Assembly (NCBI GenBank): GCA_041305945.1
Contig: JBGLND010000001.1
Coordinates: 3,216,218 to 3,280,217, forward strand
From: Promethearchaeota archaeon
GTDB lineage: Archaea > Asgardarchaeota > Lokiarchaeia > Sigyniarchaeales > Sigyniarchaeaceae
Length of the DNA stretch: 64,000 nucleotides
Reading direction: 5' to 3'
Shown here: positions 9,331-49,962 of the stretch, piece by piece
How the letters are laid out: every line of letters begins with the position of its first letter
How positions within the stretch are numbered: the stretch's first letter is position 1
Translations under genes and position numbers: made by a program
Notes under the pieces: model-generated
What the model was told of the DNA's origin: nothing
Databases searched by the model: none
Seen by the model: the letters and a program-made list of their open reading frames with translations, nothing else

Positions 9331-10335
9331 ATGTCTGATCTTGACACGGTAACAAGGATCGAACTCACGCCCGTGAACGTGCCGTTCAAGGCGATCGTTC
9401 GCCAAGCGATGCTCGCCGGGGCAGGTGGCTTGGGGATGGCGATACCAAGCGACGAGCCGTGGCTCGGCGGCGACTTCGTGATATGCCGGTTAGAAACCGG
9501 GAATGGCACGACGGGACTCGGCGAGGCATACATCTGGCTCCCCGAAACGGGCCAAACAACCGGCCAGATCATTGATGTCATCAAGGTCGCGCTCCACCGG
9601 TACGTCATCGGGGAAAATCCCGGGAACTTCAAGAAAATAAAGGCCCGTATGGACGTAAACGTCGCGAGAAATGAGGTTGCAAAGGGCTTGCTGGATATCG
9701 CCCTCTATGACCTCGTCGGGAAGCTAACGAACAAACCCGTTCACGAGATCATCGGCGGGAAGAGATGCGAGACGCTCCCCCTCGCGGCATTGGTTCCTCT
9801 CGGCAAGCTGGAAAGCATGGTGGAATACGCGCTGGTTTTCAAGGAGATGGGCTACAAGACGCTCAGGGTCAAGCTAGGCACCAGCATTCAAGATGATGCC
9901 ACGATCATGGCCGCCATCCGTGACGCTGTTGGACCCAAGATACGACTACGGGTGGATTACAACCAAGCGTACGCCGTCCCAGACGCGATCACGGCGATCC
10001 AGGCCATCGAGCCATTCGACATCGACGTCGCGGAGCAACCGGTTGCCATGGACGACTATCTGGGCATGAAAACCGTCCAAGAGCGTGTAAAGACCCCCTT
10101 GATGGCGCACGAGGGGTGCTTGGTCCTCGCTGCAACGAACGAGGGGCTCGGAACATGCTGGGTCGGCTACTTCGACGAGGAGAAGGTCAAGTCCGTATTG
10201 AACGTCCCCGCGAGATCCCGGATCGTTGCCATCACGCCCCTTGGTTACCCCGACGAGGAACCGAAGCCAACGTCACGCAAGGCCATCGACGAGATCGCGT
10301 TCCTGAACGAGTATGGTGCGAAGTATGTCTCTTGA
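9331..10335 (+). CDS. Chimeric ORF: enolase-superfamily (mandelate racemase/muconate lactonizing enzyme) N-terminal ~255 aa fused in frame to a nitroreductase C-terminal ~75 aa
   Basis: The MR/MLE part has ligand-region motifs (RVDYNQAY, DVAEQP, PLMAHEG). The sequence then switches to a nitroreductase tail, CLVLAATNEGLGTCWVGYFDEEKVKSVLNVPARSRIVAITPLGYPDEEP. This tail closely resembles the C-termini of the ferredoxin-nitroreductases at 15271 and 20718. Confidence 0.55.
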   Translation: MSDLDTVTRIELTPVNVPFKAIVRQAMLAGAGGLGMAIPSDEPWLGGDFVICRLETGNGTTGLGEAYIWLPETGQTTGQIIDVIKVALHRYVIGENPGNFKKIKARMDVNVARNEVAKGLLDIALYDLVGKLTNKPVHEIIGGKRCETLPLAALVPLGKLESMVEYALVFKEMGYKTLRVKLGTSIQDDATIMAAIRDAVGPKIRLRVDYNQAYAVPDAITAIQAIEPFDIDVAEQPVAMDDYLGMKTVQERVKTPLMAHEGCLVLAATNEGLGTCWVGYFDEEKVKSVLNVPARSRIVAITPLGYPDEEPKPTSRKAIDEIAFLNEYGAKYVS

Positions 10336-22380: not shown

Positions 22381-22499
22381 TGAACCGGATGGAGCGTCGT
22401 GGATGGTGATTGCGGCGGCTCGTGCCCTTGAAACCATGGAACGCATCATCCGGGTCGCGGAAGCCCAAATACCACCCCGGAACCCTGACGACTTCGATT

Positions 22500-22933
22500 C
22501 CAGCGAGGAGAGCATCGCGGAGATCATCGGCCACCTCACGCACTCGGCGAGCAAGGAGTTCTACGACTTCGACACCAAGAAGGAAGAGATCACGAACGTG
22601 AAAATCCTCGTGCTCACGCGGAGCGGGCTATCCGCGCGCATGGTGTCGAAATACAGGCCGTTACTCCCGATCATCGCGGTGACGTCCCAAGAAACAACCG
22701 CGCGGGAAATGCGCTTGATCTGGGGCGTTGAACCGCTCATGATCCAGGGCATCGATGATGAGTGGAACACGTTCGTGAAGATACAAAAAAGCGTCCGCGT
22801 CGCGGTCGATCGCAACATGCTAGAACCCACGGACAAAATCATCACGGTGGGCAACATGAATTACCTCCCCGCGAGGACGAACATGATCTCCATCTTCAAG
22901 GTAAGCGATATCATCGCTTCCGAAGGTAAATGA
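22500..22933 (+). pseudogene. Pyruvate kinase C-terminal alpha/beta domain fragment
   Basis: VKILVLTRSGLSARMVSKYRPLLPIIAVTSQETTAREMRLIWGVEPL matches the PK C-terminal domain (compare ILVLTESGRSARLVSKYRP..PIIAVT). The upstream part of the track ORF 21995..22933 is antisense to the membrane protein. No TIM-barrel catalytic domain is present. Confidence 0.55.
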
Positions 22934-22939
22934 ATTGGA

Positions 22940-23980
22940 GTGGCAACCACCGTGTTTTCCCGAGAGGATGCAGAGATATTACCGTGGGTCGAGAAGTACC
23001 GGCCCCGATCCGTTTTTTCCGAGGATTTCATCAACCAAGAGCTGATCATCAATAACCTCCAGTTCTACGCGTCGAATCCCGCGAGCAACATGCCCCACCT
23101 CATTTTTTCTGGTCCACCGGGGACAGGAAAAACCACCGCTGCTCTCGCCCTCGCCCGCGACATCTTGAAGGAGAATTTCAGGCTGGACACGGTGCTGGAA
23201 TTGAACGCGAGCGACGAGCGCGGGATCGACGTCATCCGGGGGAAGGTGAAGGATTTTTCCACGACCATGGAAATATCCGCGGTGCAGTTCAAGATCGTCA
23301 TACTGGACGAGGCGGATAGCATCACGAGGGATGCACAAGCTGCGCTTCGCAGGACGATGGAAACCACGAGCAACAAAGTTCGCTTCATCCTCATGTGCAA
23401 TTATGCGGACGAGATCATAGACCCGATCAAGTCCCGTTGCGCGATCATGCGGTTCAAGCCGTTGCCCCCGTCCCACGTCAAGCATTACATCCACCGCATC
23501 ATGGAACGTGAGAAGATTACGATATCCGAGCCGTGCGTGGACGCCGTTATCATGGCAGGGATGGGCGACATGCGGAAGACCATCAACGTGCTCCAGATGG
23601 CCTTGTCCGTGGTGGAATCGAGCGATGACCTCATGCCCGGCATCGTCTTCGATCTCGAAGGCTTCGCCCCGCCCGAGAAGATATCGGAGTTTTACAACTT
23701 GGTAACTGCTAAAGATGTCAAGGCAAGGGAAAACGCGGGCACGCTAGGAAAGGTGATGCGCTTGCTTGAAAGCTTCAAAGGCGTCTCGAGCAAGAACGTG
23801 ATCCTTCAAATGTACACCAAGTTCATGGAACATAAAGCGAGCATGAACCAAGCCTTGCTTGCACGCGTGATCGATATTCTTGCCACGATCGACCACCGGA
23901 TCACGAATAAAGCTACCGATTCGATTCAATACTCAACGCTGGGAGCGGAGGTCTGGCAAGCATTCAAGGACCTGGCGTGA
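22940..23980 (+). CDS. rfcS: Replication factor C small subunit
   Basis: It has LPWVEKYRP, Walker A GPPGTGKTT, Walker B ILDEADS, the SRC motif (KSRCAIMRF) and sensor 2. Confidence 0.9.
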   Translation: MATTVFSREDAEILPWVEKYRPRSVFSEDFINQELIINNLQFYASNPASNMPHLIFSGPPGTGKTTAALALARDILKENFRLDTVLELNASDERGIDVIRGKVKDFSTTMEISAVQFKIVILDEADSITRDAQAALRRTMETTSNKVRFILMCNYADEIIDPIKSRCAIMRFKPLPPSHVKHYIHRIMEREKITISEPCVDAVIMAGMGDMRKTINVLQMALSVVESSDDLMPGIVFDLEGFAPPEKISEFYNLVTAKDVKARENAGTLGKVMRLLESFKGVSSKNVILQMYTKFMEHKASMNQALLARVIDILATIDHRITNKATDSIQYSTLGAEVWQAFKDLA

Positions 23981-23999
23981 CCAAGGAGCGACATGCAAG

Positions 24000-25073
24000 A
24001 TGATGACCAGCGAACGTAAAACCGGGCCATTGAACGAACTTTTCTCGGTCAAGTACACGCCGCACCACCTTTCAGAGATCACCGGCCACGAGGACATCGT
24101 CCAACGGCTGACGAGCATGGTTTCGACCAAGAAGGTGAGCCACGTCCTCATCGCGGGGCCGGATGGTTGCGGGAAATTGACGCTTGCAAAGTGCATGGCC
24201 CGCGACTTGTTCGAGGCGGACTACGCGGCGAGCGTGAACATCGTGCACGTTGCCAACCCCTTGACGCAAGAGGAACGCAAGCTAGCGGACAGCGAATCGA
24301 GAATCAGCTCCACCCGGATCGGGAGCATCGCGGGCCAGACGCTCATCATGCCGAAATTCATCCAAGCACGGATCAAGCCCGTTGTGGAGTTACGCGCGAT
24401 GAACGAGCTGGGCTTCAAGCTGATCATCGTGACGGATTTCGAGATGCTGAACCAAGACCAGCAAGGGTTCAGGAGGTTGATGGAAACCTATGGCACGAAT
24501 TGCAGGTTCGTCTTGACCACGACGCAGATATCGAGCGTCATCGACCCGATAGCATCACGGTGCCAAGTGTTGCTCGTGAGCCCCGTCACGCGGGGGCAAT
24601 TCTTCACGGAGGTCTCCAAGGTCGGCAAGCTCGAGGGGACCAAGGTCACCTACACGTTCGCCAACTCGCTGTATTACGTCACGAAGGGGAACATCGGGAA
24701 GGCACTCAACATCATACAAGTCCTCGCACTGAGGGGACTGGAACTCACCGAGGATAACTTGTTCGAGATCATCCGGGACCTTGAAAGCAAGGAACTGTTG
24801 AGGTTTCTCGAGTCGTGCATCAACGCGAATTTCATGCAAGCTCGCGAGCTCTATTACACGATCAAGAACAAGAACGCGTTCAACTTTTCTCAATTCCTCG
24901 AATCATTCAGGAAGGCAGTGCTCCACGCGCCGGTCTCGCAAGTCATGAAGGCTTGCGTGCTGGACTCCATCGGCGAGGTCGACGCGCGGGCAACTACGCA
25001 GGCCAGCGATGACGTGCACGTGGCAAGCTTGATCTTTAAAATATCGACCAGCATCGCGGAAAACTCGACGTGA
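24000..25073 (+). CDS. RFC small-subunit paralog with degenerate ATPase motifs (RfcS2-like)
   Basis: It has the RFC box LFSVKYTPHHLSEITGHED. Walker A is degenerate (GPDGCGKLT), Walker B is DFEM instead of DEAD, and an SRC-like ASRCQVL is present. The track ORF starts at 23880 and the first ATG pair is at 24000. Confidence 0.7.
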   Translation: MMTSERKTGPLNELFSVKYTPHHLSEITGHEDIVQRLTSMVSTKKVSHVLIAGPDGCGKLTLAKCMARDLFEADYAASVNIVHVANPLTQEERKLADSESRISSTRIGSIAGQTLIMPKFIQARIKPVVELRAMNELGFKLIIVTDFEMLNQDQQGFRRLMETYGTNCRFVLTTTQISSVIDPIASRCQVLLVSPVTRGQFFTEVSKVGKLEGTKVTYTFANSLYYVTKGNIGKALNIIQVLALRGLELTEDNLFEIIRDLESKELLRFLESCINANFMQARELYYTIKNKNAFNFSQFLESFRKAVLHAPVSQVMKACVLDSIGEVDARATTQASDDVHVASLIFKISTSIAENST

Positions 25074-25507
25074 AGACCATGGACGCTGAAAAAAAGGGAC
25101 AGAATAAGGGAAAACGGGAGCTACCGTGGGTGGAAAAATACCGGCCAAAACACATGAACGAGATGGTCGGTGTTGACTCGAAGCGAAAGGAGCTTACCGA
25201 GTTCCTGGACGCGTTCCCGAAGACCCGCGCGGCCGTCTTGATCGGGCCGCCCGGCGTTGGGAAGACGACCATGGTTTACGCTGTTGCCGCGGACAAGAAT
25301 CGCGATATCATAGAGATGAACGCGTCCGATGCCAGGAACTCCGACCAGATCAAGAAGAAAGTCCAAGAGTCCACGAGGACACGGTCGATCACGGACTTCA
25401 TGGGCATAACGAAGGGAAAGGTCATCCTCATCGACGAGGTCGATGGCATCAGCGGGAACGAGGACAAGGGCGGGATACAAACCCTCGTGGACATCATCGT
25501 TCCGTAA
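25070..25507 (+). pseudogene. rfcL: Replication factor C large subunit, N-terminal 145 aa only
   Basis: LPWVEKYRPKHMNEMVG, Walker A GPPGVGKTT, Walker B ILIDEVDGISGNED and GGIQTL are followed immediately by a stop. The expected C-terminal ~300 aa are absent. Confidence 0.7.
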
Positions 25508-27233
25508 AGCGATCGGGCGCGATGTGCTTGGTAATAAACCCGCCTCTGGAACCGAAATTCTTGTCGAGCTTGGCATGGGGTGCATCAACCCGAAGAAACC
25601 CAACATCCTCATGATCGGGCACAATGCTGCCCCCGGCGTGGAGATGGTCGATTATGTCCGTGAGCACGGGCTGGACGACGCGGTCGATATCTCCGCGATC
25701 TGCTGCACCGCCATCGATCTCACGAGGTACTGGGACCGCGTGAAGGTCGTCGGTTCGATGTCCAGGCAGATGCGCTTCATCCGGTCGGGTATTCCTGACG
25801 TCGTGATGGTTGATGAGCAATGCGTGCGATGCGACAACATCTGGGAAGCCAAGAAAATAAAGGCTGCGTTCATCGCGACGAACGAGAAGAACATGATGGG
25901 ATTGCCAGACCGTACGCACGATGACGAGAACAAGATCATTGACGACCTGGTGAATTTGAAGGTGGATGGTGTCTTGATTCTCGATCCCGCAAAGGCCGGA
26001 CGAATTGCCGTCAAGGTAGCGATGGCGATCCATCCAAAACGTGCGGATGTCAACATCATTCCGAAGGCCGATGATATTATCGAAATGGCAAGCAGGTGCA
26101 CGTTCTGCGAGAATTGCTCCCGTGCATGCCCTAACGACCTCCCTCTAGCCGAAGCCGTGCAAGCAGCAGCAAAAGGAGACTTCTCTATGCTTAGAGCCTT
26201 GGAACCCGAATGTCTCAACTGTGGCCGTTGTGAAAAAGAATGTGCAAAGAACGTCAGTCCGGTCTTGCTTATACAATCGGCAACAATGGATAGGCTCGTG
26301 GAGGAGAAATACAAGATGCGCGCGGGCCGGGGTCCTGTCACGGACGTTGAGATCCGGAACATCGGTGCCCCCGTCGTGCTCGGGGAAATACCCGGCGTCA
26401 TAGCAATCGTCGGGTGCGCGAACTACCCATCAGATATCAACGAGGTCGCTTACGTCGCCGATGAATTTTGCAGGCGCGGGTACATCGTGCTCACGACCGG
26501 GTGCGAGGCCATGGATATCGCGCTTTATAGGGATCCCGAAACCGGCCAGACGCTATATGAGAAGTACAGCGGGGTCGTCGAGCGCGGCTGCTTGGTCAAC
26601 ATCGGTTCTTGCGTCTCGAACGGCCACATCACCGGGTGCGCAGCGAAGGTGGCTAACATCTTCGCGCGGAGACCGCTGCGCGGGAACTTCGAGGAGATCG
26701 CGGACTATATCTTGCACCGAGTTGGTGCGGTCGGCCTCTCGTGGGGTGCCATGAGCCAGAAGGCAGCATCCATTGCCACGGGTGTCAACGTCATCGGCAT
26801 CCCCGTCGTGGTCGGCCCGCACGGTGCCGAGTACCGGCGGCAATATCTCGGCAGGACCGACGACCCGTCCAGGTGGAAGGTCTGGAACATGCGCGACGGC
26901 ACGGAGCACGTTGCAGATCCATGCCCCGAGCACTTGATCTTCGCTGCGGAATCCAAGGAAGAGGCCATCGTAGCCATGGCGAAGCTTTGCCTGCGCCCGG
27001 CAGACTCGACGAAGGGTCGCAGCATCAAGATTTCGAACTGGGTCGATCTCCACAAAAAATACATCGGTGGGCTTCCCCATGACCTCACGACCTATATCCG
27101 GGTCGAGGCAGATATCCCAATCACCATCAAGGACGAGGTCATGGGAATGCTCAAAGCAGAAAACTGGCAACCCAAGGAAATCATCGACCCGACCATGGTC
27201 GAGCGACTCGGCATTGCCCGGGCGAAGAAATAA
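25443..27233 (+). pseudogene. cdhA: Ni-CODH catalytic subunit, archaeal CdhA type (CODH/ACS alpha), lacking the N-terminal ~250-300 aa
   Basis: It has C-cluster region motifs (ILMIGHNAAPGVEMVDYV, ICCTAID) and an inserted 2x[4Fe-4S] ferredoxin domain typical of archaeal CdhA (FCENCSRACP, CLNCGRCEKEC). It lacks the N-terminal B/D-cluster cysteine region. It starts out of frame inside the 3-prime end of the rfcL fragment. Confidence 0.6.
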
Positions 27234-27275
27234 AAAAATATCCGTTCAATCCCTTTTTCTTCTTTTTGCATCATT
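27234..27275 (+). terminator. T-rich tract after the cdhA-like ORF
   Basis: The sequence is taaaaaaatatccgttcaatccctttttcttctttttgc. Oligo-T runs follow the stop. Confidence 0.3.
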
Positions 27276-27522
27276 CTCGTGTTTCACCACTGGAGGTCAT
27301 GTGCACGTGGCATGAAAGATTTTAAAAAAAGCAAGTGAAAGGAAAAAAGAGAGGCGGTGCGAGAACGCAAGCTCGCATTTGGGAAGTTATTAGATGGTGT
27401 CTGGATTCCGTTCATTTTCTTGCGGTTCCTTTTCAAATACTTCACAAAATCTAAGCAAGCTATTAATGCCGATCGAGGTCACTAGTGATTAGCTTAGCAC
27501 TATCATCATTCGATCATGGTTA

Positions 27523-28650
27523 GTGAACAAAATGGAAAAGGATCACGTCACGATCATTAACTTCCTGATAGACTCGGCTCGCAAGCATGCTGAAATCGAT
27601 TGCATGCGGTACTTGAAGCGGGGCGAGTACGTCGGCATCACCTGGAGCGAGGTCATGGAGATCACGCGCCTGCTTGCCTTGGGTTTCCAAGCATTGGGAT
27701 TGCCCCACCAAGGCAGGATCGCGTTGATGGCCAAAACCCGGTACGAGTGGCGCTTGGTCGATTACGGCATCATGTTCGCCGGGTGCACCACCGTCACGAT
27801 CTACCCATCCCTCACCGCGGCCCAGGTCGAGTACATCATCAACGACTCGGATTGCACCGTCTTGGTGGTGGACACGCCGTCCAACTTGAAAAAAGCAATC
27901 AAGGCAAAACCAAACTGCCCGAAATTACAGCACGTCATTTCTATCGAGCCCGTGCCAGATGATCTCAAGAGCAAAGAAAACATCATGACCCTTGACGACC
28001 TCATCGGGAAGGGAGAGGGCATCAAGCCGGTGTCGGGCCTTGCACCCGGCGACATCGCGGGGAAACTCGACCGGAAAGAGAAACAACTCAAGAAAGCGTA
28101 CCACAAGGACAGAATCGATGCGCTCCTTGCCGAGTGCCGGGCGCTCGACGCAGAGCTCGTGAAAGCCACGAAGAACCCGTTCATAGAGCGATACATGCAG
28201 GTCAAGGCGGATGACGTTGCGACGATCGTCTACACCTCGGGTACCACGGGCGTGCCAAAGGGTGCCGTGCTCACGCATTACAACATGGCCATCAACGCCG
28301 TGCAAACCGCGCAGGTCATCCCGATAGAGCAACATGACCTCGTCCTGTCGTTCTTGCCCCTCTCGCACGTGCTCGAGCGCCAGGTCGGCCAGTTCCTCGC
28401 GACGTACATCGGATTCACTGTCGCGTTTGCACGGGATACCGATTCGTTGATAGAGAACCTCGACCAGATCAAGCCGACGTTCATCACGAGCGTGCCCCGT
28501 GTCTACGAGAAACTGTACGACCGCATCATTGCCGATGTCGTGGACGAGGAGAAGAAGAAAAAGATATTTGGGGGCTTTGGAACCGGTGCGGTCTTGACGT
28601 CATCCCTTTTCATCGAGTCACGTTGGGTCCTTTCCAATTGTTCCTTGTAG
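27523..28650 (+). pseudogene. Long-chain acyl-CoA synthetase (AMP-binding), N-terminal ~350 aa only
   Basis: It has the AMP-binding motif YTSGTTGVPKGAVLTH. The sequence decays after PRVYEKLYDRII...KKKKIF into a junk tail antisense to the next gene. The C-terminal half is missing. Confidence 0.65.
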
Positions 28651-29720
28651 GATGCCGCTTTATCCTCGAGCGCCTTTAACTTGTTTTCATATTCTGCGAC
28701 GGTGGATTCGAGCTTCTTCTTGCTCTCCACTCTGGCATCGATGCTGGCGATTTTTTCCTTCTCGAGGTCCTCCTTCAATTTCTTGATCTCTTCCCCCGAT
28801 CCGGCACCCTTGCTTGCTGCTTCCAATCGCGATTTCAGTATCGTGATCTCGGACTGCAACTCGGAGATCGTGCCCTTCAATTCCTTGTTGTTCTTTTCCA
28901 AGCCTTCGCTCAAGCTTAGCAATTCATCGTGCTTGGTTTGTATTTCCTTGAAATTGTCGAGTTCTCGCTGGAGCTCTTCCATCTTCTTTTGGATTCCAGC
29001 ATCCGATTGTGGCTTGTCCTTCATCCCGTCGACATCCTTTTTTAACGAGTCGACCATTCCTTGCAAGGCGACTTTTTCCCCTCGCAGTTGCTTGCACTCC
29101 ATCTCGGCGTTCTTCTTCACGTCGTTAATGGCGTTCTTGGCACTTTCAAGCTCGTCCGAGAGGCGCTTGATCTCGGCATCGAGTTCTGCTTTTTGCGCGT
29201 CCATCTCTTCCTTCATTTTCGCCACGCGATGGGACGCCTTCTTCCTCTCGTTTTCCAGTTCAGCCTCCAGGTCATTGAGCTGGTATGCCGGGGTGATTTT
29301 CTTTTCCGGTGGTGCTTCAACCTCTCGCTGGGCGATCAAGACGTGCTCGACCGGTCGTGGTGCCGGCGCCGGTGTGGATACCTGGGTTGCAATGGGCACA
29401 TGGGATGATTTTTCCTTCTCGGAAAGTGCAGACCCTTGGCCTCCGAGTAACTTCGCGATTTCTTCCTTCAAAGCGCCTGTCTCCTCGCCTTGGTTTATCG
29501 TCTGGGTCCGGAATCCATAAAATTGATACTGGCTCTTGATTTTCGTTGCGAGGGTGCCGCCCTTGTACTTCTTCACGATGGAGGTGTTTTGACCTATCCA
29601 AACATATATTACTTTGTCCGATTCTCCCACGACAAACGCGATCTCGTCATCCGATATCTTGTTAGACCAATCGAACATTTCTTTCTCGTAATTTTTCACG
29701 ACCAGTGTTTTAAACGTCAA
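28503..29720 (-). CDS. Gelsolin/cofilin-like N-terminal domain (tentative) followed by a ~280-aa coiled coil
   Basis: N-terminal DDEIAFVVGESDKVIYVWIGQNTSIVKKYKGGTLATKI fits the gelsolin-repeat pattern (D.FILD...IYVWvGk.as..Ek). The rest is heptad-rich E/K/L coiled coil. The last ~20 aa are junk antisense to the ACS fragment, so the C-terminus is probably truncated. Confidence 0.5.
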   Translation of the reverse strand: MTFKTLVVKNYEKEMFDWSNKISDDEIAFVVGESDKVIYVWIGQNTSIVKKYKGGTLATKIKSQYQFYGFRTQTINQGEETGALKEEIAKLLGGQGSALSEKEKSSHVPIATQVSTPAPAPRPVEHVLIAQREVEAPPEKKITPAYQLNDLEAELENERKKASHRVAKMKEEMDAQKAELDAEIKRLSDELESAKNAINDVKKNAEMECKQLRGEKVALQGMVDSLKKDVDGMKDKPQSDAGIQKKMEELQRELDNFKEIQTKHDELLSLSEGLEKNNKELKGTISELQSEITILKSRLEAASKGAGSGEEIKKLKEDLEKEKIASIDARVESKKKLESTVAEYENKLKALEDKAASYKEQLERTQRDSMKRDDVKTAPVPKPPNIFFFFSSSTTSAMMRSYSFS

Positions 29721-29849
29721 TCTGCTTTCACCTTCGACTAATCTGTGTGAGCTTTGTAGATCGAATTTGTTTGTAAGTTATAAAAAGGTACTCACGTGAA
29801 TTTCTTATCTCGACCCGCCTTGAATTATAGCCGTGCTCGTGCAATCGCA

Positions 29850-30146
29850 TCATGCTTGCACGTGATCGTCATCGATCCTTATGACTTTCGTCGAGGACGT
29901 GGCGCCCCGCGTGATGGACACCTTCGAGACCGGCACGTTGAAATGTCTCGAAATAACCTTGATAATTGCCTTGTTTGCCTTTCCCTTGTCCGGTGGTTCC
30001 CTCACGTGAATGACATACGTCCCGTCCTCATCTCGCTGTATGTCCTCTATTCTTGCCTTCGGCCGGGCATGAACGGTTATCTCCATGGTAGTGACATGAC
30101 CCGCGGGCGGGAAATAAGCTTTTATACGGTTTTTCCATTCGATCAA
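29850..30146 (-). CDS. DUF167 (YggU-like) family protein
   Basis: EITVHARPKARIEDIQ...DGTYVIHVREPPDKGKANKAIIKVISRHFNVPVSKVSITRGATSSTKVIRI matches the YggU pattern (vkvvPrA...GkANkali.fla.). Confidence 0.65.
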   Translation of the reverse strand: MIEWKNRIKAYFPPAGHVTTMEITVHARPKARIEDIQRDEDGTYVIHVREPPDKGKANKAIIKVISRHFNVPVSKVSITRGATSSTKVIRIDDDHVQA

Positions 30147-30176
30147 GATGGTTCACACGCGATTTGGTGCCCTACA

Positions 30177-30800
30177 ATGAGCTCCACGGAAGAAACCCAC
30201 AAGCAAAAGTTCCGGTTCAACTGCACCCAATGCGGTGCTTGCTGCGACACGCGTGATCCGGTTCCGTTGGCACTTCAAGACCTCGAACGGTGGGCAAGCA
30301 AGAAGATGATCCAGAACGTGCTACCTTATTTGAAGGCCATCGTGAAAAACGAGGTGATGGGCCTGTTCATGGACGTCATCAATGTCGAAAAGAAGCAAGG
30401 TGCCACCGGCGCCGATGTCCCTTCCCCCGAGAAGGGCAAGTGCCCCATGTACAACACGGAATCGAAACGTTGCTTGATCTATCCCGACCGGCCCTTGGCG
30501 TGTCGTGCATTCCCGCTCGGCTATGATGCAAATAGTTTTTTCATCATGATGGATGATTGCCCCGGTATCAATGCCGTGGATGAGATGGACAAGGATTTGC
30601 TCAAGCAAATGCGGGAAGATGCCAAGAACGGGTTCGAAGCGCGCCGGACCATGGGTATCACGCTTCCCATTCTTCAAGCAATTCTCATGCGCATGTTGCA
30701 AGAGGAAAACATGAAGGTCATGAGCAAGCTCAGCCCCGAGGACATGGAAAAGCTGGGCTCCATCATGCAAAAAATGGGCGGGGACGAGAAGGCAGAATAG
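30177..30800 (+). CDS. YkgJ-family (CxxCxxCC putative Fe-S/zinc-chelating) protein
   Basis: It has CTQCGACCD and later CPMY...C motifs. The start ATG at 30177 was verified. The track ORF 29796..30800 has an antisense N-terminal extension. Confidence 0.65.
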   Translation: MSSTEETHKQKFRFNCTQCGACCDTRDPVPLALQDLERWASKKMIQNVLPYLKAIVKNEVMGLFMDVINVEKKQGATGADVPSPEKGKCPMYNTESKRCLIYPDRPLACRAFPLGYDANSFFIMMDDCPGINAVDEMDKDLLKQMREDAKNGFEARRTMGITLPILQAILMRMLQEENMKVMSKLSPEDMEKLGSIMQKMGGDEKAE

Positions 30801-31134
30801 CAGCCTGCATCCAATGGCCCAGTAACACGCAATGAATCCATATAGATGGCAAGTTCTTCCCCGTCCTCTTTTTTTTATCAGAGCGTGTGGATCAATAGGA
30901 TTACACCCGCGATCACGCCGGGAAAAATCATGCAACTCCCCGGGAAGATTGTCGTGATTCACGTGACGGGTATGAAACTGGAACCAAGAATTTGAATGGC
31001 GATGGTCGGGTCGCGCCGCCAACCCGGGACGAAGGTAGTCAAGGGGTTGTAAACAGTCCGTTTTTTGCGCGGTTTGAAATAACGGTGGCAAAAGCACGAA
31101 TCCTTTTCTATCTTTTATCACGTGTATTCAAGGT

Positions 31135-31650
31135 GTGATTCCAATGCTTGGCCATCCTCCAAACCATCACCGCGTCAGCTGGCGTTCGGTTGTGCTTGTC
31201 ATGCTTCCGATTGTCGCTTTAAGCTTGCTTGGGCAACCGGTCGTGACCCGCCAGCTCGCGCCCAACACGACCTCGGGAACGCATTCAATCGGCGTTTCTT
31301 ACACGGTACACGCTCCCATCACGATTTCCAATGCATCCGAACTCGAAACGTTTGCTGGCATAACCGGAAACGGGACAGTGGGTGCTCCTTTCGTCATCGA
31401 GGGGTTGATGATCGACGGCACGTCGACCGCTTGCATCAGCGTTTCTAACACGCATGTTCCCCTCGTGATCAAGCGCTGCTTGTTGTATTCACCTTCCATG
31501 GGAACCACCGGCGTGATGCTCTCGAACTGCTCGAACGTGTCGATCGCGGACAACAGTATCTCATCGCTGACGCAAGGCATCGTTGCCACGTCATCCTCGT
31601 GGAACAACATCCGGAACAATTCCATCACCGTCATTTCATGTCATCGGATT
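31135..31650 (+). pseudogene. Secreted parallel beta-helix repeat protein, N-terminal fragment
   Basis: A signal or anchor is followed by beta-helix rungs (NASELETFAGITGNGTVGAPFVIEGLMIDGT..., SNCSNVSIADNSIS). Beyond ~31650 the frame runs antisense through the SPFH gene. Confidence 0.45.
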
Positions 31651-31700
31651 TTCATCACGGATTCACTTCGTCGATGCACGCAAAGCCTTGAACCCGGTTT

Positions 31701-32390
31701 TCACGTGATCCTGTCTCTTCGGGAGAGAAGCGCGTCGTGCCCGGTAACATGCCCGGCAAGGCCGCCTGTCGTCGTCACGGTGTCGATGGTGACCGACTCG
31801 ATACCGATGCCGTGTTTTTCCATCATCGTGGTGAGCTGGTTCGCGATGCTCGATGCAAGCCGCGCCTTGGTGTCCTCGCGGCTTTCCTCGATCTCTTTCC
31901 CCGTCGATGCAAGTGCTCTCGTCAAGAAATGGCTTGCATGCTTTTTTAAAATCGTTTCCACGAAATTGGCATCACTTGGTTGCCATGAAAAAGCATTGTA
32001 TGCAATGTCCGGTTGCATTACCTTCCACAAGATCGACATCGACGCGGAGATCATGTATCCGCCCTTGTTCTGCACACCCGTGGCCTCGATGGCCAAAGAT
32101 TGAACTGATGCGGGGAGGACCTTCACCTCGTCGATCAAGGGAAGCTTGTACAGCGTTCCACCGAGCCCTGCATACTTGATCCTTCCATGCCGCCAGTGAA
32201 TGACGTAGACGTTCGTGCTGAATTTACGGTACCTACCAACCAGAAACAACAAAAAAAATAACGAAAACAGGACCATCGCTACTAATGGCAAGATAAACAT
32301 CATATCCGAAAAACCTTGGAACAGCGTTTTCGTTCTCCTCCATTCCAGTTCAAGTATGGAATCCAATCGAGTACCTACTAAGATATACAA
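31701..32390 (-). CDS. SPFH/band-7 (stomatin/flotillin-like) domain membrane protein
   Basis: It has an N-terminal TM (MMFILPLVAMVLFSLFFLLFLV) and an SPFH core (VIHWRHGRIKYAGLGGTLYKLPLIDEVKVLPASVQSLAIEATGVQNKGGY). Confidence 0.65.
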   Translation of the reverse strand: MYILVGTRLDSILELEWRRTKTLFQGFSDMMFILPLVAMVLFSLFFLLFLVGRYRKFSTNVYVIHWRHGRIKYAGLGGTLYKLPLIDEVKVLPASVQSLAIEATGVQNKGGYMISASMSILWKVMQPDIAYNAFSWQPSDANFVETILKKHASHFLTRALASTGKEIEESREDTKARLASSIANQLTTMMEKHGIGIESVTIDTVTTTGGLAGHVTGHDALLSRRDRIT

Positions 32391-32400
32391 TATAACGTAT

Positions 32401-33426
32401 TTATCTTGTTCTGTGTTCCATCGCGTGCTTGTACAGCCCCTCGATGACCCGGAGCGCCCCGATGCATTGCTTCCCCGAAACCCGGGGCTCGTGGTCGTCC
32501 ATCGTTATCCCCTTGCAGAAATCCGCAAGCAACCTCACGTGTGACAGCATTTTCGTGTTTATACCCGCTTGTTTTGCCATCACGGTGCAATCGGTGGTTG
32601 TCGTGTTCCCGTTTTCATGAATTTTGAACGTGTCTGTTGAAACCGAGACAGCGCGCCCCGTGCCCGAGATGGTCACGTCCCAGAACGAGGGGTGCTTCGT
32701 TCCGATGGATGCCTTGATAGTCCCCATGACCCCGGCCATGCTCGCGTGGTTTCCTAGCGTGAATGCAGCCACCGCGGTGTCCTCGGTCTCGATGGGATGA
32801 ACCAGCGTTGCTATGAACCCGCGTGCGAGTACTTCCTCCCCGTTTGCATGTAACAGATACAAGAGCAAGTCGATCTGGTGAATGGCTTGGTTAAGCAACA
32901 CCCCGCCGCCTTCCATGTTGATCTTCCCGCGCCACCCGTCATTCGGAAAGTACTCGGGGTCGCGCTTGAAAAACGCGCTGGCGCTGGCTTGGAGCGGCCT
33001 CCCAAAGCTCCCGTCGCTGATGGCATCCATCGCCAGCGATGTCGACTCGTTGTACCGGTTCTGGAAGTACGCCCCGATCTTGACGCCTCCCCGGCCGGCA
33101 CGTGCGATGACGTCTTCAGCGTCCTTCACCGACGTTGCGAGGGGCTTCTCGACCAGCACGTGCTTCCCGGCCTCTATCGCCTCGATGGCAACGTCGTGGT
33201 GCAAGAAATGCGGGAGCGAGATGATGGCAAGGTCCACGTCCTTCCTTGCAAGCAAGTCCCGGTAATCGCCCGTCACCGCCGGGATGCCATGTTTATCCGC
33301 CAGCGCGCGGGCCTTATCGACATGATGGTTCGCGATGCCCGCGATCTCTATGGTCCTCGATTCGCGGGCAGCCGTCGCGATGGTGTTCGCCGACCATCCC
33401 GCCCCGATCAACACCGCACGAACCAT
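32401..33426 (-). CDS. Gfo/Idh/MocA family oxidoreductase
   Basis: It has VRAVLIGAGWSANTIA, the EKPLA motif and a GGGVLLNQAIHQIDL C-terminal domain. Confidence 0.85.
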   Translation of the reverse strand: MVRAVLIGAGWSANTIATAARESRTIEIAGIANHHVDKARALADKHGIPAVTGDYRDLLARKDVDLAIISLPHFLHHDVAIEAIEAGKHVLVEKPLATSVKDAEDVIARAGRGGVKIGAYFQNRYNESTSLAMDAISDGSFGRPLQASASAFFKRDPEYFPNDGWRGKINMEGGGVLLNQAIHQIDLLLYLLHANGEEVLARGFIATLVHPIETEDTAVAAFTLGNHASMAGVMGTIKASIGTKHPSFWDVTISGTGRAVSVSTDTFKIHENGNTTTTDCTVMAKQAGINTKMLSHVRLLADFCKGITMDDHEPRVSGKQCIGALRVIEGLYKHAMEHRTR

Positions 33427-33444
33427 GACGCGTCACCCCCGTGC

Positions 33445-34482
33445 TCACAAGGTCACGATCTTCTCGCCGTTGGACTCGTACACGGCACGCACGACCTTGA
33501 TGGACTTCAATCCTTCCTCGCCGTTGATTGCCGGCTCCCTGTCGTTGATGATGGCATCCACGAAATCGTTCATAAGGCGCGAGTGGGCCACGAGCGAGAA
33601 TTTCTTCGGGTCAGTGGCCGAACCGACCTGCCCCCCTTGTCGAGCGGCGTAATCGATGACGTCGGTCTTCCCGTCCCCGTGATGGATCGTGAGCACGTTC
33701 CCGTCGATTTCCAAGCCCCCGTCCGAGCCGAAGATGGTCAGCTTCGCGGGAAACGCGGCCTTGGTGGCGGTGCTCGTCTGTAAGGTGCCCAGCGCCCCGT
33801 TCTCGAAGACGAAGCACGCCGCGGTGTTATCATCCACCTCGATATCGTGCACCATGTGCCCCCAGAACCCGAATAACCTCGTCACTTTGCCGGCTAGGTA
33901 CACCATCTCGTCCACGGGGTGGATGGCCTGGTTGATCAGCGACCCGCCCCCTTCCAGCTTCCACGTGCCGCGCCAGCTGCTCTTCTTGTAATAGTCTGCC
34001 TCCCGGAACCACATCACGCTCACGTTCACCTGGAGGATACGGCCGATCTTCCCCGAATCGATGAGCCGCTTCGCTTCTTGCACGGCATCGAAGAACCGGC
34101 ACTGGAAGTGAACGCCAAGCTTGACCCCTCCTGCCCGGGCGGCCTTGATCATAGCCTCCGCGTCGCCAACAGTCGTCGCGAGGGGCTTCTCGACGAGCAC
34201 GTGCTTCCCCGCCCCGATGCAATCCAAGGCGATGTCCTTGTGCAACCCGTGCGGGACCGATATGATGGCGAAATCAAGCGGGTGCTTCAACAATTCCCGG
34301 TGATCGTCAAACACGAGATTGACGTTATGTTTCTTGGCCAGCATTTCCGCGGCAGGTTTGTGCACGTCGCTGACCGCGACGAGTTGCACGCCCGGTAACG
34401 TGGCGATGGTTTCGGCTATGTTGGTCGCGGACGAGCCGGCGCCTATCAAGCCCGCCCTCAAGATATTCTTCGTGTCATTCAT
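33445..34482 (-). CDS. Gfo/Idh/MocA family oxidoreductase (tandem paralog)
   Basis: It has LRAGLIGAGSSATNIA, EKPLATT and GGGSLINQAIHPVDEM. Confidence 0.85.
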   Translation of the reverse strand: MNDTKNILRAGLIGAGSSATNIAETIATLPGVQLVAVSDVHKPAAEMLAKKHNVNLVFDDHRELLKHPLDFAIISVPHGLHKDIALDCIGAGKHVLVEKPLATTVGDAEAMIKAARAGGVKLGVHFQCRFFDAVQEAKRLIDSGKIGRILQVNVSVMWFREADYYKKSSWRGTWKLEGGGSLINQAIHPVDEMVYLAGKVTRLFGFWGHMVHDIEVDDNTAACFVFENGALGTLQTSTATKAAFPAKLTIFGSDGGLEIDGNVLTIHHGDGKTDVIDYAARQGGQVGSATDPKKFSLVAHSRLMNDFVDAIINDREPAINGEEGLKSIKVVRAVYESNGEKIVTL

Positions 34483-34499
34483 AATCGTTCACCATGTCG

Positions 34500-35573
34500 T
34501 TACGTTGGTTCTAGTTTCAGATCGCGACGCTGCTGGTTCGTTCCCCGGCCCGCGTACCCCGCATAGTGACGATCGCCGCCGGGATCACGAACCCGAGAAT
34601 GGCAAAGAGCATGAGCCACTCGAACCCCGGCATGACGTTCACACCCGTTGCTTGCCAGATGTTCCACCCGAACAAGTTCAAGACCGACGACAGCCCCGAC
34701 CGCGAATTGCAGGATGTTGCCGATTTCGATGTCGGTGACTCCCTTCGCCACCGTCGGGACGAGCACGATCGAATCGAGGCCTGCATTGCGGCAAATTTCA
34801 AGTGCCCGAAGCTTGTACTCGACGAAGTTTGTCTGGGCGCGGGTCTTCTCGTAGGTCTCGTTGTGGATGCCGTCGAATGAGAAATAGAGCGTGTCGAGGC
34901 CGGCTTCCCAGCAGTCCTTGGCGAACTTTTCACCGATGCCATTCTTGCGCTGGAAACCGTAGCCGTTGGTGGCAACGAGAACCTCCTTGAAGCCTTCTTC
35001 CTTTGCCATGCGCACGATGTCGACGAAGTCCTTGCGGACCGTCGGCTCGCCGCCCGTGAACATGATGGCAACGGCGGGGATGGGCTTGCTGCGAAAGTGC
35101 CGCATGATCTTGCGAATTTCGTCCTGGGATGGTTCAACGAGCAGGCCCGTTTTTTCCACGTTTGCATAGCAGAAGTTGCACTTCAAGTTGCACCGGTTCG
35201 TCAGATCGATGAGGGCCAAACTTGCTGTTGATTTGTGCTGAGGGCATAACCCACAATTGTACGGGCAGCCCCGCGGGTCCAATGCCGGATTGTCGGGCGG
35301 ATTGGCAGCCCCGTCCTTCTCGAAGGAGAATGCATCCTCCGAATAATGCGTCCACTTGTAATAAAGCGCGTTGGTACTAATGACATCCTGGAAGTACCCG
35401 TGCTGGGGGCACGTCTTCTTCATGAGTATCTTGTTCTTCTCCGAATTCTCGCTCACGACTTCCTCGACAACTTCAGCGTCGATAGGTTGCAAGCATTCGG
35501 GGCAGATGCTCTTGGTTTTCTTGTACCACGGCTTTTTTCCGTATTCAGTGTCCCGGATGTGATACATAGTCAC
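34500..35573 (-). CDS. Radical SAM protein with N-terminal Cys4 zinc-ribbon; C-terminal ~50 aa look non-native
   Basis: CPECL...CPQHG is the ribbon and CNLKCNFCYA is the radical SAM CxxxCxxC. FTGGEPT is the SAM-binding motif. The tail is Arg/Gly junk (LASNGCERHAGVRVAHALCHSRVRDPGGDRHYAGYAGRG). Confidence 0.65.
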   Translation of the reverse strand: MTMYHIRDTEYGKKPWYKKTKSICPECLQPIDAEVVEEVVSENSEKNKILMKKTCPQHGYFQDVISTNALYYKWTHYSEDAFSFEKDGAANPPDNPALDPRGCPYNCGLCPQHKSTASLALIDLTNRCNLKCNFCYANVEKTGLLVEPSQDEIRKIMRHFRSKPIPAVAIMFTGGEPTVRKDFVDIVRMAKEEGFKEVLVATNGYGFQRKNGIGEKFAKDCWEAGLDTLYFSFDGIHNETYEKTRAQTNFVEYKLRALEICRNAGLDSIVLVPTVAKGVTDIEIGNILQFAVGAVVGLELVRVEHLASNGCERHAGVRVAHALCHSRVRDPGGDRHYAGYAGRGTNQQRRDLKLEPT

Positions 35574-40635: not shown

Positions 40636-40962
40636 TTATGCCCCGAGCAGCTGGGCCAACGTGCGCCCCGTGAAGGGTCTGACGCCCGGCGTGCGCATCA
40701 CGAAGAAGCTGACATTCGGCACTTTAACAATCCCCATCGTCGAGGAAACGTGGCGCCAGACGCCCGTGTTCCACCCGACCTTCCACGAGTGGGTCCACGA
40801 CACGTTCAGCGGGCTGCCGGGGTACGATTTCTCCCCGCGCACGATGTCCATCTCGATCTCGTCGGTCTCAACCACGCCAAACATGATCCCAACGGACTCC
40901 TTGTACTTCTTCTCGAAAAAATCGAAAATTTTTTTCAAATCGTTTCCATCATCGAAGCTCAT
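40636..40962 (-). CDS. Small hypothetical protein (~108 aa)
   Basis: Starting at MSFDDGNDLKKIFDFFEKKYKE, the ORF has A/T-rich gene-like codon usage. There is no family call, and + ORF 40661..41209 covers the same region on the opposite strand. Confidence 0.3.
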   Translation of the reverse strand: MSFDDGNDLKKIFDFFEKKYKESVGIMFGVVETDEIEMDIVRGEKSYPGSPLNVSWTHSWKVGWNTGVWRHVSSTMGIVKVPNVSFFVMRTPGVRPFTGRTLAQLLGA

Positions 40963-41036
40963 GGAACATATGAACGAACTGGGAGTTAATCTACTTTGCG
41001 ACCCCCCGGGAACCTTCTTATGCATTCGCGTGGCAT

Positions 41037-42488
41037 ATGGAAATAATGAATTTCATCACCATCATTTCCGACACCCTACGGCGGGACTTCTTGAAACCGT
41101 ATGGCAACGATCGCGTGGATACGAGGAACATCCAGCGATTCGCGGAGAAATCAGTCGTCTTCGACAACGCGTATTCGGCAAGCTTCCCGACGGTTCCCAA
41201 CCGGCGTGATGTCTTCACGGGATGCTACACTGCGACGTACACGCCCTGGGCACCAATGACGATGTTCGAACCTGTCCTGCAGGTCATGCTCGGGCAGCAC
41301 GGCTACACGTCCATGATGATTACCGATCAACCCCACATCGTTGAAAATGGCTATTTCTTCGACCGGGGATTTGATGGCTGGGAATGGATACGCGGCCAAG
41401 AGCACGACCGGTGGAAGACTGCCCCCCGCGCCCCGCCCTTCAAGGAGGACCCCGCGCTGTATCGCAACCCGCCCGGCCTTCAAAAGATGCATATGCGCGT
41501 CCGGGCGCAGCGGAAGTACGAGAAGGACACGTTTCCCGGCCGCACGGCGACGTGCGCATGCGAGTGGCTCGAAGACAATTACAAGGAAAGTAAACCATTT
41601 TACCTTTACGTGGATTTCTTCGATCCGCACGAGCCGTGGGACCCGCCACAATACTTCGTTGACAAGTACGACCCGGGCTATGATGGCCGCTCGGTCGATT
41701 ACCCGCTCTATAACAAGACCGCCGGGTACCTCACCGAGCGAGAAGTCCAGCATTGCCGCGCTCTCTACGCGGGTGAGGTGACCCTCGTTGACAGGTGGGT
41801 AGGCCGCATCTTCGAGAAGGTGGAAGACCTGGGCTTGCTGGAGGATACCATGATCATCTTCACGACCGACCACGGGTTCTTGCTGGGGGAGCACGGGTTT
41901 ATCGGCAAGAGCTTCACGAATTACCAAGGGGAAGGAAAGACCGTCCTGAAGTACATCCCCTTGTTCGAGGAAATCAACCACATACCGCTGATCGTGTATC
42001 ATCCCGACGTGAAGCCAGGTCGCAGGAAGGCGGTCGTGCAGCCACCAGATTTCTTCCCGACGATCTTGGATGTTGCTGATAAATTCGTGATTCCTTCCCA
42101 CGGGACTTCATTCAAGGACGTGTTGCTCGGAAAAAAACCCGATCACCATCGTGATTTCGCGTTGAGCTTCCCGTTCTTGAAGATGAGCGGCATCCCGGTT
42201 TCGTTCGTGAAAGGGGATTGGTCTGCCGTGTTCATCTCGAAATCCATCGGCAAGGAACAAGCAGGAAAGCAAGTCATCGACAAGGCGGTCGACGGCCTCG
42301 AGAAAACGCTGGAACCGTGGGAAGAAGCGCGGGACATGCTGTTCAATCTCAAGGATGACCCGCGCCAGCTCAATGACGTCTCGAAAGACCGCCCCGATTT
42401 GATGGCCACGTTCAAGAAGGAAATGGTCGAATACCTGGATGAATTGGAAGCCGACCAGGATGTCTTGAACGGGTGGCGTGATGGGTGA
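41037..42488 (+). CDS. Sulfatase-like (alkaline-phosphatase superfamily) hydrolase with non-canonical active-site motif
   Basis: It has the sulfatase N-terminal domain (IISDTLRRDF, TDHGFLLGEHG). The formylglycine motif position reads FPTVPNRR, with Thr instead of Cys/Ser. Confidence 0.75.
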   Translation: MEIMNFITIISDTLRRDFLKPYGNDRVDTRNIQRFAEKSVVFDNAYSASFPTVPNRRDVFTGCYTATYTPWAPMTMFEPVLQVMLGQHGYTSMMITDQPHIVENGYFFDRGFDGWEWIRGQEHDRWKTAPRAPPFKEDPALYRNPPGLQKMHMRVRAQRKYEKDTFPGRTATCACEWLEDNYKESKPFYLYVDFFDPHEPWDPPQYFVDKYDPGYDGRSVDYPLYNKTAGYLTEREVQHCRALYAGEVTLVDRWVGRIFEKVEDLGLLEDTMIIFTTDHGFLLGEHGFIGKSFTNYQGEGKTVLKYIPLFEEINHIPLIVYHPDVKPGRRKAVVQPPDFFPTILDVADKFVIPSHGTSFKDVLLGKKPDHHRDFALSFPFLKMSGIPVSFVKGDWSAVFISKSIGKEQAGKQVIDKAVDGLEKTLEPWEEARDMLFNLKDDPRQLNDVSKDRPDLMATFKKEMVEYLDELEADQDVLNGWRDG

Positions 42489-42494
42489 AGTATC

Positions 42495-43913
42495 ATGACC
42501 ACGAGACCTAATATCCTCTTCTTATTTCCCGATCAACACCGGGGAGACTGGATGCCGTACCCGCCCGACGTGCTGGCCAAGTTTGGCATGGGCGAGCTAC
42601 CGCTACGCATGCCCGTGATCGAGGCGTTGATGGCGCGTGGCGTGACGTTTCACAATTGCGTGACCCCGGCGCCCTTGTGCGCGCCCGCGCGGTCATCGCT
42701 TGCCTCGGGATTGCGATATGAAAAAACCGGCGTCAAGGGCAACAATTTCAACCATCCCCTCGAGCTCAAGACCTTCTATTCGGTCTTGAAGGAGAATGGC
42801 TATACGGTCGGCGGGTGCGGGAAGTTCGACCTGCGAAAGCCGGAGCATGATTTCGCCGGGACCGGTTGGGTCCCGAAGCTCGCGCAGCTTGGCCTCACCG
42901 AGGGGTACACGATCGATAACGGCGGCAAGCACGATGCCATTCGCTGTGGCACGACATACGTCGATCCCGTCGACGGGAAAAGAAAACACCACCTGGATCC
43001 CGAGAAGCACCCGCCCGTGTGCCCGTACATGAAATATTTGAACGATAACGGGCTCATGATGATGCATATAAAGGACTTCGCGAAGCGGGGCAAGGTCTTC
43101 GGGATGCAGCTTAATAGCAGCCCCACCCCGTTGCCTGAAGAAGCGTATTGCGATAACTGGGTGACGCGAAACGCGGTGGACGTCGTAAAGCGTTTGCCCG
43201 CGGGGAAGCCATGGTTCTTGCAAGTCAACTTCGTGTGCCCGCATGAACCGTTCGATATAACGAGACGCATGAAGGATGCATGGAAAAACGTGAAATTTCC
43301 CGGGCCCAACCGCGGTTCAATGCTCACGGCGGCTGCCGAGAAAAAAGTCCGGCAAAATTACGCGGCCATGATCGAGAACATCGACCGGAACGCGGGGCTC
43401 ATCATCGACGAAATTTCCAAGCGGGGGGAACTAGAGAACACGATCATCGTGTATTCCAGCGACCACGGCGAGATGCTCGGCGATTTCAAGAAGTATGGCA
43501 AGTCCCGTCCAGAGCGCGCCTCCATCCGGGTGCCGCTCGTCATTGCCGGGCCCGGGATATCGAAAGGCGTCATCAGCGACGCGCTCGTCGAGTTGCAGGA
43601 CCTTGCTGCCACGTTCGTTGGCCTCGCCGGCCTGTCCATGCCGGAAGCCAAGGACTCGATATCGCTCGTGCCCGTCCTCGAAGGAAAAACGGACCGGCAC
43701 CGGGATCACGTCGTCTCGGCGCTGGCCAACATGGGATCTGCACTGGGCAATAAGAAGGTCGGCTGGCAAGTGGTGCTTGATGGCAAGTACAAGCTGGTTT
43801 CAACCACTTCTGGCGCGGAGCTCTTGTTCGACCTTGAAGCTGACCCGTGGGAAAACGAAGATATATCTGCAAACCACCCCGATATTGTTGGTGCGGCGAA
43901 AGATACACGCTAA
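42495..43913 (+). CDS. Sulfatase (arylsulfatase/choline-sulfatase type) with canonical CxPxR motif
   Basis: It has ILFLFPDQHRGD, CAPARSSLASG (C-x-P-x-R formylglycine motif) and SDHGEMLGD. Confidence 0.85.
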   Translation: MTTRPNILFLFPDQHRGDWMPYPPDVLAKFGMGELPLRMPVIEALMARGVTFHNCVTPAPLCAPARSSLASGLRYEKTGVKGNNFNHPLELKTFYSVLKENGYTVGGCGKFDLRKPEHDFAGTGWVPKLAQLGLTEGYTIDNGGKHDAIRCGTTYVDPVDGKRKHHLDPEKHPPVCPYMKYLNDNGLMMMHIKDFAKRGKVFGMQLNSSPTPLPEEAYCDNWVTRNAVDVVKRLPAGKPWFLQVNFVCPHEPFDITRRMKDAWKNVKFPGPNRGSMLTAAAEKKVRQNYAAMIENIDRNAGLIIDEISKRGELENTIIVYSSDHGEMLGDFKKYGKSRPERASIRVPLVIAGPGISKGVISDALVELQDLAATFVGLAGLSMPEAKDSISLVPVLEGKTDRHRDHVVSALANMGSALGNKKVGWQVVLDGKYKLVSTTSGAELLFDLEADPWENEDISANHPDIVGAAKDTR

Positions 43914-44152
43914 TTATTCAATGATATATGCCCTTGAAGGAATCATCACGTTGAGCTCGGGAAGCCGTGCCTACACGACAATGCCGCACGACAACGACGA
44001 GATCATTAACAACGTGCTCGTTGGCTTCGATAATTTCTGCAAGAGGCTCAAGGACAAGTAATTGGTTTTTTAGCGGAATGCTGCTTGGCAGCAATTTTTC
44101 TTGTTTTTTTCCAATTTTGTCGAGCTTTCCCCACGCCGGGAAAGAAATAAAT

Positions 44153-46069: not shown

Positions 46070-46096
46070 GTAAAGTAACGGGATGGATACAACATC

Positions 46097-46885: not shown

Positions 46886-46903
46886 GCAGCCGGCCATCGT
46901 TGG

Positions 46904-47227: not shown

Positions 47228-47247
47228 GGAAGATGTAAGGGATACAA

Positions 47248-47262: not shown

Positions 47263-47284
47263 GTGGCGAGGGCCAAGACGAGGT

Positions 47285-49936: not shown

Positions 49937-49962
49937 GTCGACCAGCGGGTTATCGTAGAGGA

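Follow-up and report, generated by a model that had tools for sequence, protein, structure and literature searches.

An artefactual rfcL/cdhA junction in a Promethearchaeota genome record that was very probably strung together from short contigs

The DNA examined here is a stretch of 64,000 nucleotides (nt), hereafter the window, from contig JBGLND010000001.1 of a Promethearchaeota (Asgard) archaeon, assembly GCA_041305945.1. Within it, the gene for the large subunit of the clamp loader, rfcL, stops early and is followed, in another frame, by cdhA, the gene for the alpha subunit of carbon monoxide dehydrogenase/acetyl-CoA synthase (CODH/ACS), which lacks its 5' part. An earlier note, made from the sequence alone, had pointed to this junction and to similar ones elsewhere in the window, and had left genuine pseudogene scars or a chimeric assembly as the two alternatives. 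We conclude that the rfcL/cdhA junction is an artefact, and neither a pseudogene, a gene fusion nor a rearrangement. With a probability that we put at about 0.93, the window derives from a fragmented metagenome-assembled genome (MAG) whose contigs were strung end to end without N spacer, and represents no real chromosome. The observations behind this are the edges of the blocks that make up the window, the intact copies of the cut genes in sister assemblies, a foreign segment of 60 nt at the junction, the occurrence of further portions of cut genes elsewhere in the record, and an overlap of 35 nt between two contig ends.

According to this explanation, a first contig, A (22424-25499), would have broken within rfcL after codon 140. 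The next one, B (25500-28570), would open with a 60-nt stretch of bacterial deoB, attached by a graph assembler to codon 228 of cdhA via a 19-nt word, and an open reading frame (ORF) finder reading across the seam would create the frames of a 145-amino-acid (aa) 'RfcL' and of a 596-aa 'CdhA'. The window as a whole would be the region of the file in which contigs just exceed 3 kb. We infer that the contigs were joined once assembly was complete, by the builder of the record, and that their fragmentation goes back to a mixture of strains or to low coverage.

Cut genes and their intact sister copies

Both ORFs described in the earlier note are present in the window. The rfcL ORF, at 25070-25507(+), is 145 aa long; according to the gene call in a sister assembly, its real start is the ATG at 25079. 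Codons 1-140 of 426 are found at 25079..25499(+), and two foreign codons then lead to a stop at 25507. This fragment has the AAA+ module of the N-terminus: its translation shows the motifs Walker A (GPPGVGKT) and Walker B (ILIDEVD), and it matches Pfam AAA and Rad17. Against the RfcL profile NF003229 it scored 149.5 bits, for a cutoff of 280, and covered positions 3-131 of 413 only, so that the match is neither above cutoff nor full length and does not include the lid and C-terminal collar domains of the family.

The cdhA ORF, at 25443-27233(+), encodes 596 aa, and overlaps the rfcL ORF out of frame. Residues 228-784 of 784, that is the C-cluster region, the inserted ferredoxin domain and the C-terminus, are encoded at 25560..27233(+), and are 100% identical to the same residues of an intact 784-aa CdhA, P0121. 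The closest other CdhA proteins, labelled Promethearchaeota or Hodarchaeota, show 78-83% identity, which marks the organism as an Asgard archaeon. Against TIGR00314 the ORF scored 773.8 bits, just under the curated cutoff of 781.3, and matched positions 221-761 of 784 only, the N-terminal ~220 residues being missing from the window. These partial profile matches, set beside intact sister proteins of 426 and 784 aa, bear out the claim that rfcL and cdhA are both truncated and non-functional as encoded.

A comparison with close relatives had been proposed, and both genes proved intact there. We used three sister assemblies, which represent the same population (99.1-99.97% DNA identity to window pieces). 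An exact-product look-up with RfcS led to L001, an 8196-bp contig (JBFYKL010000036.1) of GCA_041306025.1, which encodes, in this order, pyruvate kinase (PK, 491 aa), RfcS (346 aa), an RfcS paralog (357 aa), an intact RfcL (426 aa) and the product of one further gene. Positions 3602-6677 of L001 correspond to window 22424-25499 at 99.935% identity (blastn). The similarity ends abruptly at both edges, and L001 runs on beyond both of them with sequence that is absent from the window. At the protein level, the intact RfcL of the sister assembly (P0123, 426 aa) is identical over residues 1-140 to the translation of window 25079-25498. For cdhA, the counterpart is L004, a 34-kb contig of GCA_041305845.1, on which an intact cdhA is followed by an intact acyl-CoA synthetase gene (666 aa). 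Its positions 10682-13692 correspond to window 25560-28570 at 99.867% identity.

Identity therefore ends abruptly at window positions 22424, 25499, 25560 and 28570. The intact rfcL and cdhA genes reside on different sister contigs with unrelated neighbours, and in general pieces that are adjacent in the window belong to unrelated contigs in the sister assemblies. In other words, flanks continue differently in independent assemblies, and identity stops sharply at the seams. Independent assemblies do not show the break itself: the genes of L001 and L004 are intact at 99.87-99.94% DNA identity. A sequence 100% identical to window sequence was found in SRR28346263. An exact 40-mer of the window did not occur in the genome contigs searched (genome_contigs), in which a scan at the protein level yielded no relative of the 1010-aa ORF, and a search of the literature for run and accession numbers gave no mention of the sister assemblies.

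The order rfcS, rfcS-like paralog, rfcL had been recognised as that of an archaeal clamp-loader operon, and it is the same in L001, where the operon is intact. The window has the expected gene order and domain content, and differs from such an operon in that rfcL is cut past its Walker B region, because the contig ends there.

One of the six pieces compared with sister contigs, 46946-49990, is only 99.15% identical to its counterpart L005 (26 mismatches), the other five being at 99.87-99.97%. From this difference we conclude that several strains coexist, which is a likely cause of the fragmented assembly. The sister contigs also encode, near the cdhA locus (L004 768-1070) and near a reductase locus treated below (L007 3558-3920 and 8866-9807), Roadblock/LC7, LAMTOR5-like and Arf/RagA-like GTPase proteins. 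All of these belong to the eukaryote-like signature proteins that are typical of Asgard archaea.

The seam at 25499|25500 and its bacterial tip

Piece A (22424..25499) is 3076 nt long and holds PK residues 323-491, rfcS, the rfcS paralog and rfcL codons 1-140. Piece B (25500..28570) is 3071 nt long, and consists of a 60-nt foreign tip and of the 3011 nt that match L004. The match to L001 ends at 25499, and the position of the seam, 25499|25500, is fixed by a match to another contig, L009, which begins exactly at 25500. In a scan of JGI metagenome contigs, window 25500-25578 was found to be 100% identical to positions 5005-4927 of this L009 (Ga0105099_10008099), within an ORF identified as deoB (NF003766, 509 bits). 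This contig is bacterial, since the neighbours of deoB in L009 encode a non-ribosomal peptide synthetase (NRPS)-like adenylation protein and a HetI-type phosphopantetheinyl transferase. The earlier note had rfcL abutting cdhA directly; in fact, a 60-nt fragment of a bacterial phosphopentomutase gene (deoB, 25500..25559, +) lies between them, and matches neither L001 nor L004. It is followed at 25560..25578(+) by a 19-nt word, CTTGTCGAGCTTGGCATGG, which is common to the bacterial deoB and the archaeal cdhA and encodes LVELGM in both. Because the two genes have this word in common, we read piece B as a contig whose start is a chimeric tip from another organism, attached via the short shared word. 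One might speculate that a word of 19 nt hints at an assembler starting from a small k.

Such a tip resembles the chimeric contig ends formed between genomes in de Bruijn graphs, with a short identical word linking deoB reads to cdhA and a foreign end of 60 nt. The resemblance is limited to the join at 25559|25560, the only one of its kind, whereas the seam at 25499|25500 is a plain end-to-end one, without a shared word. No sequence is common to the two sides of 25499|25500, and neither repeats, target-site duplications nor mobile-element genes are present at this seam. A 48-mer spanning it was absent from the JGI metagenome contigs. We also considered that the 60-nt stretch might be a local inverted or duplicated piece, and rejected this, since no 11-mer of it recurs above chance in L001, L004 or the rest of the window.

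The composition of this region also accounts for the 60-nt overlap between the two ORFs. The overlap had been described correctly, but its reading as the opening of a new gene frame did not hold. CdhA sequence is absent from the first 39 codons of the 596-aa ORF, of which codons 1-19 read rfcL in an alternative frame and codons 20-39 fall within the 60-nt foreign stretch. The overlap is therefore a chance read-through and marks no gene start.

Pieces of about 3 kb and their possible origins

The window contains no N character, and is composed of about 21 pieces of 3.00-3.09 kb, whose lengths roughly fall along it. Pieces measured against sister contigs are 3076, 3011+60, 3049, 3071, 3045 and 3025 nt long, at 99.15-99.97% identity. 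For the eight exactly measured pieces, the mean length is 3056 nt (SD 17, range 3025-3076), and length decreases with position (Spearman rho -0.88, p 0.004).

DNA alignments placed seams exactly at 22423|22424, 28570|28571, 31635|31636, 34684|34685, 46945|46946, 49990|49991 and 62071|62072. Further seams are found at ~7030, ~10119, ~13195, ~16270, ~19347, ~37756, 40825|40826, 43896|43897, ~53040, ~56040 and 59046|59047. Truncated domains place seams at ~830-871, where an AMP-binding enzyme lacks its C-terminal domain, at ~3943-3964, where an ABC ATPase begins at profile position 69, and at ~53026-53058. A codon-usage frame plot recovered known seams within ~50 nt, and did not place the others exactly. 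Thus the claim that similar junctions recur across the window is correct: those that had been listed were confirmed by DNA alignments or, for ~830-871 and ~3943-3964, at the level of truncated domains. The list had missed about half of the seams, and the regular spacing of ~3.06 kb had been overlooked.

Downstream of piece B, piece C (28571..31635, 3065 nt by subtraction) encodes a coiled-coil protein and, cut at 31635, a beta-helix protein (Pfam Beta_helix), and piece D (31636..34684, 3049 nt) corresponds to positions 200-3248 of L002, reversed, at 99.967% identity. The interval 34685-40825 holds two pieces, with a mean of 3070 nt by subtraction. It is followed by a piece with two sulfatases (40826..43896, 3071 nt; L006 962-4031, 99.935% identity) and by one of 3049 nt (43897..46945), obtained by subtraction from the exact edges of its neighbours. 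The piece at 46946..49990 (3045 nt) carries CorA and an Mpt_N protein cut at its N-terminus, and corresponds to L005 4887-7931, reversed, at 99.146% identity; the product of 47285-48502, P0130, is found as an exact product in the public protein collection. Three pieces with a mean of 3019 nt by subtraction fill 49991-59046. The next one, 59047..62071 (3025 nt), aligns with both L007 5514-8538 and L008 1164-4188 at 99.9% identity, and contains a cut ferritin-like gene, a peptidase M28 gene and a cut gene of the geranylgeranyl-reductase family.

The missing parts of several cut genes are on the same record. In the public protein collection, the truncated products all map to one NCBI-sourced sequence of 3,705,313 bp: RfcL of 142 aa (P0122), CdhA of 552 aa (P0001), acyl-CoA synthetase of 372 aa (P0126), a geranylgeranyl-reductase fragment of 216 aa (P0144) and an enolase/nitroreductase chimera of 334 aa (P0148). 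Elsewhere on this sequence are RfcL residues 149-426 (P0125), PK residues 1-107 followed by unrelated sequence (P0136), and residues 1-167 of the geranylgeranyl reductase, again followed by unrelated sequence (P0146). None of these three parts is in the 64-kb window. For rfcL, PK and the reductase, therefore, the record holds other parts of the cut gene as well. Of the intact reductase gene, 35 nt (L007 5514-5548) are common to both pieces, and the two PK breaks, after residue 107 and before residue 323, are 645 nt apart. This overlap and this spacing indicate the ends of graph-assembly contigs, with short contigs discarded, rather than cutting into equal sizes. The reductase overlap and the bacterial tip attached via the 19-nt word are both signatures of contig ends.

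The likeness to drafts or MAGs concatenated into a pseudo-molecule without spacers is extensive: unrelated loci are joined, genes are cut at seams, ORFs read through, other gene parts are in the same record, and the size order is typical of assembler output. Concatenated drafts usually have N linkers, however, and contigs that are either strictly sorted by length or in arbitrary order; the window has no Ns, and its order follows length only roughly. The recurrence of seams and the size pattern are explained by file order, though this order is not strictly sorted. A strict sort fitted the first four pieces (3076, 3071, 3065 and 3049 nt), and was ruled out by the 3071 nt of 40826-43896 and by the 3025 nt of 59047-62071, which come after a mean of 3019.

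Some points weigh against concatenation as we propose it. A plain sort by length fails to explain the layout, in which 3049 is followed by ~3070, 3070 and 3071, and a mean of 3019 by 3025. Six of the ~20 seams (~7030, 13195, 16270, 19347, 37756 and 56040) are placed by spacing, ORF ends and the codon-usage frame plot only. Finally, who concatenated the 3.7-Mb record, and how, can only be surmised.

It is improbable, in our view, that an assembler, scaffolder or gap-closer made a truly chimeric contig or scaffold, with the joins arising during assembly. The start of piece B, with its deoB tip and 19-nt word, is a genuine assembler chimera, and the rough rather than strict length order could reflect the internal ordering of a tool. 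However, assembler mis-joins arise at repeats and are unevenly spaced, whereas the window has ~20 joins spaced by 3.00-3.09 kb, with nothing shared across the seams and no Ns, and its adjacent pieces are unrelated loci in the sister assemblies. The 'chimeric assembly' of the earlier note thus pointed in the right direction, except that whole contigs of ~3 kb have been set end to end, rather than mis-joined within a contig.

More improbable still is an origin from long contigs divided into equal ~3-kb chunks, whether for binning or as a deliberate shuffle or control, with the chunks then written in scrambled order. Near-constant piece lengths, some of which recur (3071 twice, 3049 twice, and 6141 = 3070 + 3071 for the interval 34685-40825), would fit such chunking. 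It would also produce pieces that abut exactly and breaks that are one chunk apart, and we rejected it as the reductase pieces overlap by 35 nt rather than abut and the PK breaks are just 645 nt apart. Moreover, piece B starts with a foreign tip, the truncated products are already in a public, NCBI-sourced protein set, and lengths trend downward instead of being random.

We find it hardly credible that the junction reflects genuine biology, that is rearrangement scars or pseudogenes with rfcL and cdhA truly disrupted and juxtaposed. The sequence as given does encode truncated genes, and Asgard genomes carry mobile elements. Yet both genes are intact in sister assemblies at ~99.9% identity, which contradicts the pseudogene-scar alternative of the earlier note; the remainder of rfcL is on the same record; the genes cut include the essential rfcL and pyruvate kinase; the breaks recur at intervals of ~3.06 kb; a bacterial gene fragment, joined by a 19-nt coincidence, forms the spacer; and the seam is devoid of repeats, target-site duplications and mobile-element genes. 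Naturally split or pseudogenised archaeal genes, such as the split genes of Nanoarchaeum, likewise appear as two separate pieces in one record. A natural split gene comes with its own starts and stops, is conserved in related organisms and shows no regular spacing, whereas here the relatives have intact genes and the pieces are contig ends. Equally hard to credit is a minority strain of the sampled population in which a real rearrangement has put the 5' part of rfcL beside a deoB fragment gained by horizontal transfer and a cdhA truncated at its 5' end, a variant that the assembler would have captured.

Read-through ORFs and other features of the window

The clamp loader and CODH/ACS of this organism are ordinary, being intact in sister assemblies, and the junction offers nothing biological to pursue. 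Its value is that of a data-quality warning: an Asgard sequence of 3.7 Mb, in appearance a single contig, is, at least across the window, a string of ~3-kb contigs without spacers. Read-through ORFs are already public, among them the 334-aa enolase/nitroreductase 'fusion', the 142-aa 'RfcL' and the 552-aa 'CdhA'. An entry of this kind may be taken for a domain fusion, a pseudogene, gene loss or novel synteny, and such errors matter in a lineage whose gene content informs arguments on the origin of eukaryotes.

The 334-aa 'fusion' corresponds to an in-frame chimeric ORF across the seam at ~10119 (9331..10335, +), composed of the N-terminal part of an enolase-superfamily protein and of a nitroreductase tail. 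Searches with Pfam and NCBIfam matched MR_MLE_N, then MR_MLE_C over positions 6-105 of 219, then the nitroreductase profile over positions 126-167 of 167, and in the public protein set this product (P0148) is a singleton. A second in-frame read-through, 58403-59851(-), was observed at the seam 59046|59047, where a ferritin-like gene, which encodes 325 aa in L007, breaks off near residue 265 and runs on into a complete inorganic pyrophosphatase gene. At the seam 34684|34685, a homolog of the radical SAM enzyme Tes (tetraether lipid synthase; 34685..35573, -) is cut at about residue 311. It matches positions 1-256 of 486 of NF045702 with 281 bits, and is not in frame with the L002 gene on the other side of the seam.

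On piece A, the PK fragment (22424..22933, +; residues 323-491 of 491) matches Pfam PK_C only, and identity to the intact protein starts at ETMERII; a similarity that apparently reached upstream of 22424 proved to be a spurious tail of a gapped alignment. It is followed by an intact rfcS (22940..23980, +; 346 aa), whose exact product is found in L001 and which matches Pfam AAA, AAA_lid_RFC1 and Rep_fac_C. The rfcS-like paralog (24000..25073, +; 357 aa), intact as well, maps to the L001 gene at 5178-6251 and matches Pfam DNA_pol3_delta2, Rad17 and Rep_fac_C. Its Walker A motif is degenerate (GPDGCGKLT, not GKT/S), as is the region of Walker B (IIVTDFEM), and the SRC motif is kept. Judging from these motifs, the paralog is probably an ATPase-inactive subunit of the clamp loader. 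On piece B, cdhA is followed by residues 1-346 of 666 of the acyl-CoA synthetase (27532..28570, +), which the next seam cuts; residues 1-346 of P0127 correspond to 27532-28569.

Two ORFs of more than 1000 codons each, 3879-7076(-) and 16084-19401(+), each take up an entire piece, with no match in Pfam. The first is a poor fit to the codon usage of the window and lies in a stretch of lower GC (~0.51), so that the piece carrying it may have entered the bin as a foreign contig. We also noted a perfect 18-nt palindrome, GGTCGCGTGCACGCGACC, at 40161-40178. An exact 22-nt direct repeat, AATCGGCGCCAGCCTTGCCATC, is present at 15145-15166 and 16123-16144, 978 nt apart and with unrelated flanks; the chance expectation for such repeats in 64 kb is about 1e-4.

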